DNA of 64,000 nucleotides from contig JBHLMQ010000003.1 of the NCBI GenBank assembly GCA_048938005.1, positions 96,001 through 160,000 of the forward strand, written 5' to 3'. The DNA comes from Promethearchaeota archaeon. GTDB lineage: Archaea; Asgardarchaeota; Lokiarchaeia; Sigyniarchaeales; SOKP01. The position numbers and the translations under genes are program-made. Within the stretch, counting starts at the first letter, position 1, and every line of letters begins with the position of its first letter. The notes below the pieces were generated by a model. It saw only the letters and a program-made list of their open reading frames with translations, searched no databases and was not told the DNA's origin. Below are positions 49,693 through 63,255 of the stretch, piece after piece.

Positions 49693-50439
49693 TCACGTAC
49701 GAGCGAAAGCACCGACAGAATCATGTAAGACATTGTCGATTGAAAGGACAAATCCTACTAAAATTCGGCGATCAGTTTCATTATCAAGGATTTTAAGAGC
49801 ATAAGTGTCTTTAAAGTCAAACACCCCTCCAAGGAAGAAATCTCTCCACCTATCAGCTTTTTCGATTTCTGCGACAATTTTTCCGGTTGCTACTTCATAC
49901 ACTTTAAAGCTAAAACCAAAAAAATTACCAATGGCTTCATACCATCGTGTTCCATCAGGCGCTTCTAAGAAAAATTTATTCTTGAAAAATGTAAGTATCT
50001 TTTTCTTAATTCTTGCTATTAAATTCCCTTGTGGATCCTTTAAATCTTGAGCCCCTCGAGCAGATACGATTTTAGCGTGAATAGTAGCAGCTACGGTACC
50101 ATCAATTTCTTGTAATTCAACCCTACGTCTAATACTTAAGATTATTCGTTTCATCTTTCCAATAACTTGACCATTCTCATCTAAGATATCACCACTACCC
50201 CATTTGGGTTTAGAAGGGAACCCCTCCTAAACATCCCAGTATTTTTCTTTAAGGATGTAATAATTGCGGTTAATATCAAACAATCCTCCTCCAGGAGTAG
50301 GAGTCTTTTTTGATGGAATTATTGGAGGTGATACTTCTTCTTGTGTTTTTGCACTCTCAGGTATTGGTGAACCACACTTCTCACAAAAATTCTGGGATGG
50401 ATCGGTTATCTCATCCCCACAATTCGGACAATATGGCAT
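49693..50439 (-). CDS. Zinc-ribbon + LURP-one/scramblase (Tubby-C-like) protein, split by a 30-nt putative intron; join(50439-50233, 50202-49693), 238 aa
   Basis: The two track ORFs (50227..50439 and 49693..50154) share a frame. Removing 50203-50232 gives ...YYILKEKYWD-WGSGDILDENGQVIGKMKRIILS..., a typical LURP-one-type start. Confidence 0.75.
50203..50232 (-). other. Putative 30-nt BHB-type mRNA intron
   Basis: UGGG AU^G UUUAGGAGGG-GUU-CCCUUCUAAA CCCA AA^U: 4-bp central helix, two 3-nt bulges, 10-bp inner stem; contains an in-frame UAG. Confidence 0.75.
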
Positions 50440-50602
50440 ATTTTTACCTCTAATTTTTAATTATTATGTTTTGTTTTGATTAGTGAATGGTGATGTGGTT
50501 TTATAAAGTTTCGGGTAAGTATGCTGATAATTTTATCTTCATGAAAACGTTTTAATTAAATAAGGATTAATTATTATTAATTGAATATTATAGGAAAGCA
50601 GT

Positions 50603-51364
50603 ATGTCAACTATAATTATACCAAAACTATTGAAATTAAAAGATTACATTACGCTTATAGGGACTACTTTAGGGATTATCGCTCTAGTCTGTGCCTGTTT
50701 TGGTACTCGCGAATCTATTTCTTTAGGATTTTTTCTGATATCCCTCTCTCTTGGTACTGACATGATTGATGGATATATTGCTCGAAAAACTAAAACTGTG
50801 AATGAAATGGGCAGAGAATTAGATTCATTGAGCGATTCTTTAACATTTGGTATCGCACCAGCAGTACTAACATACCAATCTTTTAAAACTGGGGATTTTT
50901 TTGATATTATTATTATAATAGGAGCAATTTGTTTTGCTATTGGTGCAATGCTTAGATTAGCGCGATTTAATATTTCAGAAAGTCCAGGATATACAGGTTT
51001 ACCAACACCATTAAGTGCCTTATTGTTAATTAACTTTTTCTATGCTAATTATTTTTATGCGTTCGCCATGGGCGGCAATACATATCCTTTTCTGGAGATA
51101 TCTTCCTATATAATACCTATTTTTATGGTTCTTATCGGCTGGTTTAATATCACAACTTACATTCGATTTGGTGAGAAAGGTAAGACAATTTATATTATTT
51201 TTTCAGCTTTAGCCCCATTATGCCCTATACTGGGTATTATTGGAATATTGAATCCAAATTTTCTAATTTCAATTATCGTAGCTATTTTCTTTTTAGGAGC
51301 TTTTATATTTATGTTAATATTAATTGTTAGGGGATTTATTGTTTATCTTATTACCAAGGCATAA
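50603..51364 (+). CDS. pssA: CDP-alcohol phosphatidyltransferase (archaetidylserine/phosphatidylserine synthase type)
   Basis: DMIDGYIAR...GRELDSLSD..TFGIAPA, LRLARFN, GLPTP. Confidence 0.85.
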   Translation: MSTIIIPKLLKLKDYITLIGTTLGIIALVCACFGTRESISLGFFLISLSLGTDMIDGYIARKTKTVNEMGRELDSLSDSLTFGIAPAVLTYQSFKTGDFFDIIIIIGAICFAIGAMLRLARFNISESPGYTGLPTPLSALLLINFFYANYFYAFAMGGNTYPFLEISSYIIPIFMVLIGWFNITTYIRFGEKGKTIYIIFSALAPLCPILGIIGILNPNFLISIIVAIFFLGAFIFMLILIVRGFIVYLITKA

Positions 51365-51431
51365 ATAATAAATATTTGTCAACAAATAATTTCAGCATCA
51401 AATTAACAAAAAAAAGTTATCCCTACTAAAT

Positions 51432-61178: not shown

Positions 61179-61343
61179 ATCAAGAATGTTTTAATTATTT
61201 AACTAATAGGACCTAATAGTCACACATATCATTTATTTCTTAAAAAAAATTTCTATTTTTGTTTTAGTAATAAAGAAATTCAAATTCAAAAAAATATTAT
61301 AATTAATTAAAATAATAATATTTCAAATGCAGTAAAACTTTTC

Positions 61344-61904
61344 TTGCCGTTTCTAGAAATAAGTTTAAATGATTTAGCTTTTGACCCAAAAGTACAGACA
61401 TATTGTGTAAAACCTAATTTTAGATGTCCTAGTTATGGTCATTCATGGGCTTGTCCACCAGAGGCTCCATATTTGGAACATGAAGTATCAAAATATAAAC
61501 AATTTTATCTTATTTTTGTTAAATACAATTTAAGAAGTTATATAGAGAAAGAAAAAGAAAAACATCCAAAAAGAAACGAAAATAGCATAAGAAATGCTTT
61601 TTTTATGAAAAACCTATTACGAGATAAGTTAGAACAAGAAATTGAATCATTTATTAATGAAAATCAAAACCTCTATGACGAAAAACTTATTTTATGGGAT
61701 GGATTTTGTAGATTATGTTTTAATGAAAAAGATAAGGGATGTACTTATGATGCTGGTGATCCTTGTCGCTATCCAGATAAAAAGAGGTATTCTATGGAAG
61801 CAGTAGGAATTGATGTAACTCAAACTGTAAAAAATTTAAATTTTAATTTAGAATGGCCTCCTAATAAATATGTTTATCGTTTTGGTCTAGCATGCTTTAA
61901 ATAA
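61344..61904 (+). CDS. DUF2284 metal-binding protein
   Basis: CPSYGHSWACPP, CRLC, CRYP...SMEAVGIDV. Confidence 0.8.
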   Translation: MPFLEISLNDLAFDPKVQTYCVKPNFRCPSYGHSWACPPEAPYLEHEVSKYKQFYLIFVKYNLRSYIEKEKEKHPKRNENSIRNAFFMKNLLRDKLEQEIESFINENQNLYDEKLILWDGFCRLCFNEKDKGCTYDAGDPCRYPDKKRYSMEAVGIDVTQTVKNLNFNLEWPPNKYVYRFGLACFK

Positions 61905-61922
61905 ATAGTAAAAGTAAGGAGA

Positions 61923-63255
61923 TTAAAAAACAATATCTTCTAATACAATAGTTTCCTTTCTATCTGGTCCAATTGAAACCATGGCAATTTCTGTTTTAAG
62001 TATTTCTCCAATTGCGTGAATATATATTTTCATTGTCTCTGGAAGAGCATCATATCCTTTTCCTGCTATATCTAACCATTCTTCCCTAGTCTTTTCTTCC
62101 CAACCTTTAAAACTTCTATAAATTGGTGTACAATTTTCAATTATTTCTGATTGGATTGGCCAACTTTCAAGTTTATTACCTTCTAATTTATAACCAATAC
62201 AAATATTTATTGGATTAACTCCTTGAAGTGCGTCTAAAAGTGTAATTATAACTTTATCAACACCATTAATCATTATTCCATATTGAATATTGAAAAGGTC
62301 TAACCATCCAACTCTTCGTGGTCTTCCAGTTACGGTACCATATTCGTTACCTTGTTCTCTAATTTTATCAGCAGTCTCATTAAATAATTCTGTTGGGAAT
62401 TTTCCTTCACCAACTCGAGAAGTATACGCCTTAACAATTCCAATTATTTTATCAATTTTTTTAGGTGGAATTCCAGTACCAGCAGAAATTCCTAATGCGT
62501 TCGCATTAGATGATGTACCATAAGGGTACATACCAAAATCAAGCGATAATAGATTTCCTTGAGCTGCTTCAAAAAGAACTTTTTTTCCAGAATCTATAGC
62601 TCTATTCAAATAGTAGGCTGTATCAATTACATAAGGTTTAAGTTGCTTCCCATACTCTTTATACTCTTGATATATTAGTTCAAAAGACTCATCCCAATCA
62701 GAATCATATGCTTTTATAACTTTCTTTTTGATTTCAAAGAGGTTTTCCAATTTTGGTTTAAGAAATTCGGGATGTATTAAATCAAATACTCGGATGCCCC
62801 AGCGTGCAGCTTTATCAGAATATGTGGGACCAATACCTCTTTTGGTTGTACCGGCACTATACTTCCCCTTTGATTCCTCTTCTAGCCCATCTAATACCCG
62901 ATGGAAGGGAAAGATTACATGTGCGGTTGAACTTAATTTTAGATTTATCTTTTTATCAAGTTTTTTCAAATGATCTATTTCTTCAATTAAGACTTTAGGA
63001 TCAACTACACAACCATTAGCTATAACTCCTTCTTTTTCTAAGGGAGCTCCAGATGGTATAAGTTTAAATTTATATTTAATTCCATTAGCATTTATTGTAT
63101 GACCCGCATTATTTCCACCATTATATCTTACGACAATATCAGCCTTCTGTGCTAAAAAATCAACGAATTTGCCTTTGCCTTCGTATAGGGTTAATTTGCG
63201 ACGTGCAAAACTAAGCTCCCCACGAAAGGCCAATAACGGCAATAGTATTACTCAT
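61923..63255 (-). CDS. purA: Adenylosuccinate synthetase, split by a 31-nt putative intron; join(63255-63216, 63184-61923), 433 aa
   Basis: Exon 1 [13 protein letters not shown] plus exon 2 gives WGDEGKGK; also [35 protein letters not shown]. Confidence 0.93.
63185..63215 (-). other. Putative 31-nt BHB/BHL-type mRNA intron in purA
   Basis: CUUUCGU GGGG AG^C UUAGUUUUGC-ACGUC-GCAAAUUAA CCCU AU^A CGAAGG; excision restores the GAC (Asp) codon and the frame. Confidence 0.85.

Follow-up and report, generated by a model that had tools for sequence, protein, structure and literature searches.

Probable bulge-helix-bulge mini-introns in protein-coding genes of a Promethearchaeota archaeon and its relatives

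Two protein-coding genes of a Promethearchaeota archaeon, purA and a gene with a LURP-one-related (LOR) domain, are each interrupted by a short insert that is very probably an archaeal bulge-helix-bulge (BHB) intron, spliced from the mRNA by the endonuclease EndA and the ligase RtcB. Both genes lie on the minus strand of the window, which is the whole 64,000-nt stretch of DNA that was analysed (C11:96001-160000) and belongs to a metagenome-assembled draft genome of 3.72 Mb in 101 contigs with 29.8% G+C, 95% complete and 7% contaminated. The features that carry this reading are directly observable and comprise the anatomy of the inserts, the exact repair of both reading frames, conservation at the same codon in relatives, covariation and the presence of the enzyme genes. 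An earlier first-pass annotation of the window had described two minus-strand inserts of 30 and 31 nt with a common architecture that would block translation if left in place; all of the features it listed are present where it placed them, and the block consists of a UAG stop in the LOR gene and a frameshift in purA.

The LOR gene starts at position 50439 and, according to Pfam, encodes a zinc ribbon followed by the LOR domain. Its first exon (50233..50439, minus strand) comprises 69 codons, is supported by the open reading frame (ORF) list, its translation and Pfam zinc-ribbon matches, and ends with ..KEKYWD; the last six nucleotides, UGGG and AU (50238-50233), provide the 5′ half of a central helix and the first two bulge bases. 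Mini-intron 1 (50203..50232, minus strand, 30 nt), as delimited by sequence, fold and BHB scoring, consists of a single G (50232), a 23-nt hairpin with a 10-bp stem (50209-50231), CCCA (50205-50208) and AA (50203-50204). The CCCA pairs with UGGG of exon 1, so that the central helix has four of four pairs next to the stem of 10. The second exon (49693..50202, minus strand) begins with UGGGG.., reads WGSGDILDENG... and matches Pfam LOR PF04525 (E 3.8e-08, profile positions 50-186 of 187). The unspliced frame meets the UAG two codons into the insert (..KEKYWDV, stop, EGFPSKPKWGSGD..), and excision of the mini-intron gives YWD/WGSGD, which intronless orthologues read uninterrupted as YWDWGSGD. The LOR gene has a single match in this genome.

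In purA, the first exon (63216..63255, minus strand, 40 nt) runs from an ATG at 63255 through 13 codons to the first base of an Asp codon, as supported by sequence, fold and orthologues. It ends in ..UGGGGAG, where GGGG (63218-63221) is the 5′ half of the central helix and AG (63216-63217) supplies the first two bulge bases. Mini-intron 2 (63185..63215, minus strand, 31 nt) lies in the GDEGKGK loop, is defined by sequence, fold and introns at the same site in relatives, and is made up of C (63215), a 24-nt hairpin (63191-63214), CCCU (63187-63190) and AU (63185-63186). The second exon (61923..63184, minus strand) begins AC-GAA-GGC (..D-EGKGK..), covers positions 12-416 of 416 of Pfam Adenylsucc_synt (E 6.8e-151) and is the sole purA match in this genome. 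The fold has a 7-bp outer helix, with CCUUUCGU (63222-63229) as its 5′ strand and ACGAAGG (63178-63184) as its 3′ strand, a central helix with four of four pairs and an inner stem of 7+2 bp. As the insert is 31 nt long, the reading frame is shifted. The joint rebuilds the Asp codon from G of exon 1 and AC of exon 2 to give SWG-D-EGKGK as in intronless orthologues, and moving the cuts by one base either way would place Tyr or Ala at this position. In the ORF list the break is hidden within a 439-aa ORF with a TTG start, so that a gene caller would not flag it, which agrees with the earlier expectation that such genes mislead annotation. A high-depth DNA contig from sequencing run X1 aligns with purA exon 2 as far as its first base (63184), continues in unknown letters and matches again from 63328; its probable source is a related strain in which the region of the intron and first exon is different.

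Both inserts share a layout of four exon bases, a 3-nt bulge, the hairpin, a 4-nt partner and a second 3-nt bulge. More specifically, an exon end of the form NGGG-A-N is followed by one base, a hairpin that opens with UU and closes with AA, and CCC(A/U)-A-N. EndA cuts after the second base of each 3-nt BHB bulge, and cuts at these positions (AU/G then AA/U in the LOR gene, AG/C then AU/A in purA) restore the conserved protein exactly in both genes.

The survey of relatives proposed by the first-pass annotation finds that some species carry an insert at the same codon and others lack it. For the LOR gene, 6 of 23 congeneric loci carry an insert at the window's site, 14 have none, and three have an insert of 28 or 30 nt for which the BHB geometry sets the joint 12 nt further upstream, with a central helix of AA(A/G)G paired with CUUU or CCUU and with bulges AAA; all seven loci from outside the genus are intronless. 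The six hairpins at the window's site differ in sequence, with 77 of 78 cells paired (99%) and 5 of 13 pairs changed on both sides. For purA, an insert is found at exactly this position in 10 of 22 congeneric loci, the other 12 read ..TGGGGNGAYGARGG.. uninterrupted, and exon 2 is open in all 22. None of eight purA loci from other genera has the intron. Across the species loci of the genome collection, a set that overlaps the congeneric one, 20 of 52 Promethearchaeota loci carry the insert and 32 do not, with intron lengths of 30-32 nt among relatives.

The pairing in purA is maintained while the sequence changes. In 21 distinct sequences 81.2% of cells are paired, compared with 34-49% after displacement of the partner by 1-3 columns; both members have changed in eight pairs, and the covariation score is reached by none of 500 shuffles. 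The central helix alone is paired in 97.6% of cells. Because the motif's exon half is also coding sequence, part of the covariation runs via synonymous codons, as in the two-sided change (CUC..GAG) in the outer helix of 3 of the 21 sequences. The outer helix is kept in sequences that use the serine codon UCG and broken in the 8-10 that use AGU. The purA tree places all 20 intron-bearing rows in a single clade of 33; seven changes of intron state are required, no fewer than three of them imposed by branches with good support, whereas shuffled labels need 16 on average. This distribution fits one old gain followed by several precise losses, a history in which the tree alone cannot separate gain from loss.

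Further introns were brought to light by comparison of the whole genome with that of a congener, G022 (a single contig of 2.27 Mb), using tblastn in both directions with all stop-to-stop ORFs of at least 70 aa as queries. Alignments with at least 70% identity contain 20 insertions of 24-36 nt, 8 with an in-frame stop and 12 without. Under a BHB criterion of at least three of four central-helix pairs and a stem no more than two pairs short, five of the eight stop-bearing insertions qualify, that of a metallo-beta-lactamase (MBL)-fold protein is a sixth in an alternative register, and none of the 12 stop-free insertions does. Besides the LOR intron, three introns of this genome are absent in G022 and have a BHB solution: a 30-nt intron in a NifU-like gene (C29:234-263, plus strand, joint QMD/GGDIELV), a 40-nt intron in archaeal DnaG primase (C17:81569-81608, plus strand, joint AIFGQ/TEGLL) and a 30-nt intron in a coiled-coil protein without a Pfam family (C37:10506-10535, plus strand). 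Each of these three genes has a single match in this genome. Conversely, G022 carries 30-nt introns that have a BHB solution and are absent here, in aEF-2 (L133:2056-2085, plus strand, joint TDSD/DEEQERGITI), in the MBL-fold protein (L080:15853-15882, minus strand) and in a ThiS-like protein (L067:11767-11796, minus strand, joint ..ILPH/IAGG). Single Pfam domains are split across the proposed exons in NifU, aEF-2 and ThiS; exon 2 of the NifU-like gene matches profile positions 17-67 of 67, and exons 1 and 2 of aEF-2 in G022 match positions 2-35 and 49-187 of GTP_EFTU.

The purA intron is common to both genomes and is therefore invisible to the two-genome comparison. With it, there are five introns in this genome (3.7 Mb) and four in G022, both of which are lower bounds because shared introns, introns beside short exons and those in weakly conserved genes escape. 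Across relatives the total is 11 intron sites in eight genes, and each genome carries a different subset. The suspicion that the phenomenon extends beyond two genes is thus borne out, while the extrapolation from two inserts in 64 kb to many per genome is not: four specific introns and the shared one in purA were found, and with two of these five the window is an outlier.

The distribution of the additional introns was followed in 24 congeneric genomes. These carrier counts rest on sequence listings, as an automated tally gave false BHB solutions at intronless loci and was dropped, and three coiled-coil loci were re-read by hand where the script had picked a longer solution. The DnaG intron occurs in six genomes at a length of 39-40 nt. 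At a locus of another family (L265 in genome G026), an unrelated 29-nt intron hairpin sits at exactly the same DnaG codon, so that this site is either very old or has been hit by repeated insertion. The first NifU site is occupied in two genomes and a second site, in the CxxC region, in one (L286 in G003), where a 30-nt BHB intron follows the second Cys codon of CxxC; species with the first site lack this second intron. Eight genomes carry the aEF-2 intron as judged by open-frame length, of which seven loci are verified by BHB structure and the eighth lies at a locus edge; 97% of cells in the aEF-2 introns are paired. For the coiled-coil gene, four genomes carry the first site, two carry a site 9 nt upstream, and one more lies at a locus edge. 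This genome encodes two aEF-2 paralogues (C8:6737-7636 and C52:6697-7599, with about 41% identity), as do most of the sampled relatives, and in the relatives the intron is confined to the C8:6737-7636 type.

The usual build of these introns is 1 + 23 + 4 + 2 = 30 nt, with a stem of 9-10 bp and a loop of 3-5 nt. Pooling 18 distinct 30-nt introns from four genes gives 224 of 234 cells paired (96%), compared with 27-50% after sliding. The constancy of the build does not extend to the sequence at the insertion point. The exon half of the central helix is UGGG or GGGG in the two genes of the window and AUGG, CAUG, CGUG, GGCC, UCAG, UGCA, CCCC, AA(A/G)G or GGUU at other sites, so that the common GGGA target proposed in the first-pass annotation is not supported. 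The resemblance of some exon ends to intron ends is explained by the palindromic nature of several of these words.

The enzymes expected for BHB splicing are encoded in this genome, which answers the earlier call for a check of EndA type and RtcB. There are two EndA-family genes, of 198 aa (alpha) and 205 aa (beta-like), and one RtcB gene. Both catalytic residues, His and Lys, are retained in the 198-aa protein, whose nearest match is chain B of PDB 3p1z and 3ajv, the Aeropyrum heterotetramer. In the 205-aa protein Asp replaces the catalytic His, which fits a structural subunit. Excerpts of PMC5829648 describe Asgard archaea as having an (alpha-beta)2 EndA with an L1 loop that is tied to a broad substrate range. 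Comparison with tRNA introns is only partial because ARAGORN finds 30 tRNA genes genome-wide, 21 of them with a predicted intron from calls that are not BHB-aware; it places none in window positions 1-64000. The tRNA-like locus C24:133219-133320, whose ARAGORN label 'tRNA-Tyr ata' is probably a miscall, contains a BHB intron of 28 nt that resembles the mRNA introns in build and has a 9-bp hairpin.

Together these features would support the following course of events. The introns would be transcribed with their host gene, and in the pre-mRNA four exon bases would pair with four bases near the 3′ end of the intron. The hairpin of about 23 nt would stack on one side of this central helix and the exon-exon pairing, 7 bp in purA and almost none in the LOR gene, on the other, so that two 3-nt bulges are presented 4 bp apart. 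The splicing endonuclease, composed of the catalytic alpha and the His-less beta-like subunit, would cut after the second base of each bulge, and RtcB would join the exons and probably circularise the 30-nt intron. Only the spliced mRNA would encode a functional protein. The mini-introns appear as a set of uniform build (1 + ~23 + 4 + 2 nt) with a patchy distribution over genes and species of this Promethearchaeota lineage, presumably inherited vertically and lost repeatedly, with a second nearby site in some genes.

Several observations weigh against this interpretation. None of the 19 sequencing runs listed is recorded as RNA, and cleavage and ligation, together with any mobility or regulation, are what we infer from the genomes. 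The fold energies of the two inserts are unremarkable (z = -1.17 and -1.70), with 28 and 10 of 200 shuffles folding at least as well as they do, and BHB-like sites of the GGG..CCC type number 538 genome-wide against 505 in the reversed sequence; since neither measure singles out the inserts, the case for introns rests on comparison. The outer helix of the LOR intron is a single base pair, a relaxed form that requires an enzyme tolerant of relaxed BHB forms, and four of the six outer-helix pairs of purA are missing in 8-10 of 21 sequences. Departures from the canonical form are seen in the MBL-fold intron, where one of the four central-helix pairs is missing, and in the DnaG introns, whose stem is weak beside the bulge. 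Finally, aEF-2 has a second paralogue with about 41-43% identity, so that the intron-bearing gene need not be the only copy.

Genome-wide, neither BHB-like sites nor BHB sites that join ORFs show a surplus over controls, which also counts against a widespread system. Generic BHB geometry yields 402,606 sites, of which 19,700 pass an ORF-joining test compared with 17,275 of equally many random decoys. The pass rates are flat at 3.3-6% in all classes save the second-strongest one with a G+C-rich central helix, where 2 of 13 pass. For the 26-36-nt architecture, this genome has 97,418 sites and its control 97,476, and the corresponding figures for G022 are 58,691 and 58,493, with ORF joining at 995 against 946 and 597 against 589, respectively, and a scan for TTAG hairpins shows no enrichment (731 against 1,094). 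The motif scan for repair of split genes that had been suggested thus yields no excess, and it was the comparison with G022 that exposed the introns. Structure alone cannot find these introns, which are few, and the lack of a statistical surplus puts the true number in the tens at most, not the hundreds.

Other candidates were set aside. Among 62 candidates flanked by conserved protein matches, the LOR insert is the only one that looked real, and by eye the rest looked like ordinary gene junctions with a stop, ribosome-binding-like purines and an ATG. A 30-nt stretch with several stops at C57:58882 (plus strand), absent in the G022 orthologue, is located close to where a conserved ORF starts, some 1.1 kb upstream of the RtcB gene; as no BHB solution was found for it, it may be upstream non-coding sequence. 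The candidate at C48:8133 has no BHB solution and reflects a coding insertion without stops on the opposite strand. Those at C76:3271 and G022:131742 are doubtful and without a BHB solution, as is a 27-nt candidate at C63:6330, which passes a loose criterion within a 72-aa ORF.

Among the alternatives, removal from RNA by machinery other than EndA and RtcB, such as another hairpin-recognising RNase or a different ligase, fares best but is improbable. The assignment of the enzymes rests on motif geometry and gene presence, and the uniform 23-nt hairpin, which EndA does not need, might serve some other factor as a handle. Nevertheless, at all sites examined the cuts needed for a correct protein follow the second base of each 3-nt bulge, where EndA cuts, and both EndA subunits and RtcB are encoded.

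Less probable still is translational bypass, a ribosomal hop across the insert of the kind described for phage T4 gene 60 and mitochondrial 'byp' elements. The hop would be aided by the hairpin and by a stop that directly follows the take-off site, and the inserts are short, with a hairpin inside and a stop no more than two codons past the 5′ joint. The purA insert, however, splits the Asp codon as G/AC, and hopping cannot make the invariant GDEGKGK loop from such an arrangement. In the LOR gene a hop would start at GAU and land on AAA, which are mismatched codons, and bypass does not require a conserved and covarying pairing of the exon with the 3′ end of the intron, with bulges 4 bp apart.

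DNA-level insertions in killed genes, as footprints of miniature transposons or small duplications, had been put forward as the scenario that could undo the intron reading, and they rank lower again. Such insertions would account for the stops or frameshifts that gene callers see, for the patchy presence and absence, and for short like words at exon and intron ends, as with AAUU in the MBL-fold gene and AAAAAU at LOR site B. Against this, purA, DnaG and others have a single match per genome, with both flanks open and conserved in every carrier, and the inserts persist with compensatory changes across species 15-25% apart in protein. The purA insert has no flanking target duplication. The like words AAUU, CAUG and GGCC are palindromic central helices that are predicted by the BHB structure, which is lacking in all 12 stop-free insertions of similar size.

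An assembly or sequencing artefact, conceivable in a metagenome-assembled draft of many contigs with some contamination, has almost no probability given that the same inserts occur in many independently assembled genomes and that DNA contigs from the runs of three studies cross them without a gap (X1 record 1 and X6 record 25 for the LOR gene, X2 record 24 for purA). A self-splicing group I or II intron or another described RNA family is rejected, as a ribozyme core could not be accommodated in 30 nt and no Rfam covariance model reaches its gathering score in window positions 1-64000. BHB introns of endonuclease type in Asgard mRNAs, as the first-pass annotation had proposed, thus appear to be the best reading of the exact repair, the recurrence at the same codon and the covariation.

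How the introns came to be distributed in this way allows a more tentative proposal. It is possible, although rather doubtful, that still-mobile 30-nt BHB mini-introns colonise Promethearchaeota genes by reverse splicing or a similar RNA route and are lost via spliced-RNA intermediates. Hints in this direction include the two sites in each of three genes, occupied in different species (LOR, 12 nt apart; the coiled-coil gene, 9 nt apart; NifU), the unrelated 29-nt DnaG intron in another family, the single build across unrelated genes and the different subset in each genome. If true, this would constitute an endonuclease-based cycle of gain and loss acting on mRNAs in the archaeal lineage closest to eukaryotes. 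A role in regulation can also be envisaged at some sites, for example in the ThiS-like gene. Its intron directly precedes the C-terminal Gly-Gly; left unspliced, the mRNA would yield a modifier that lacks the end used for conjugation, and splicing at this position could gate expression.

With a handful of introns per genome, the scale of the phenomenon is modest. If the interpretation is correct, the presence of introns in core genes (purA, DnaG, aEF-2, NifU) would mean that endonuclease- and ligase-dependent mRNA splicing recurs in the closest archaeal relatives of eukaryotes. Annotation is corrupted in two ways, by a longer false ORF that masks the break in purA and by genes that otherwise look like split genes or pseudogenes, and mini-introns can distort completeness estimates based on marker genes. 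Their patchy presence, second sites and precise losses offer a tractable system for how tRNA-type introns move and vanish.

A BHB intron in crenarchaeal cbf5 pre-mRNA was reportedly described by Watanabe in 2002. According to excerpts of PMC2738675, cbf5 was the only confirmed case of archaeal pre-mRNA splicing as of 2009, and excerpts of a 2020 study (PMC7714728) report a BHB intron in the 5′ untranslated region of the Haloferax volcanii HVO_1309 mRNA with cbf5 as the sole other case. No report of BHB introns in Asgard protein-coding genes was found in the searched literature, which did not cover subscription-only papers. In the genome studied here cbf5 is uninterrupted, with a 342-aa open frame.

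The mini-introns can be compared with several known systems. Non-spliceosomal splicing of HAC1 and XBP1 in eukaryotes is regulated by stress and depends on Ire1 together with tRNA ligase or RtcB, the latter being the ligase in animals. The likeness would lie in the use of an endonuclease and a ligase on a short intron that alters the reading frame, and the difference in Ire1 and its distinct stem-loop motif. Archaeal tRNA introns, for which excerpts of PMC5829648 describe non-canonical positions, relaxed motifs and the (alpha-beta)2 EndA, share the BHB motif and presumably the enzymes, but in the mini-introns the exon half of the motif must also encode protein. As in Haloferax volcanii HVO_1309 (PMC7714728, excerpts), an mRNA would serve as substrate of the splicing endonuclease and removal would matter for expression; unlike here, the HVO_1309 intron sits in the untranslated leader and leaves the reading frame intact. 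The closest parallel is the cbf5 intron of Crenarchaeota, which in the excerpts of PMC2738675 is likewise short, bounded by a BHB motif, situated in a coding region and easily taken for a frameshift. The two further agree in a host with hetero-oligomeric EndA and in patchy gain and loss among related species. Whereas splicing has been demonstrated experimentally for cbf5 as a single gene, here it is predicted from sequence comparison for 11 sites in eight genes, with an Asgard host and one tight build of about 30 nt around a 23-nt hairpin. The mechanism would thus be the same as that of cbf5, and the novelty would lie in a multi-gene, uniformly built set of introns in an Asgard lineage.

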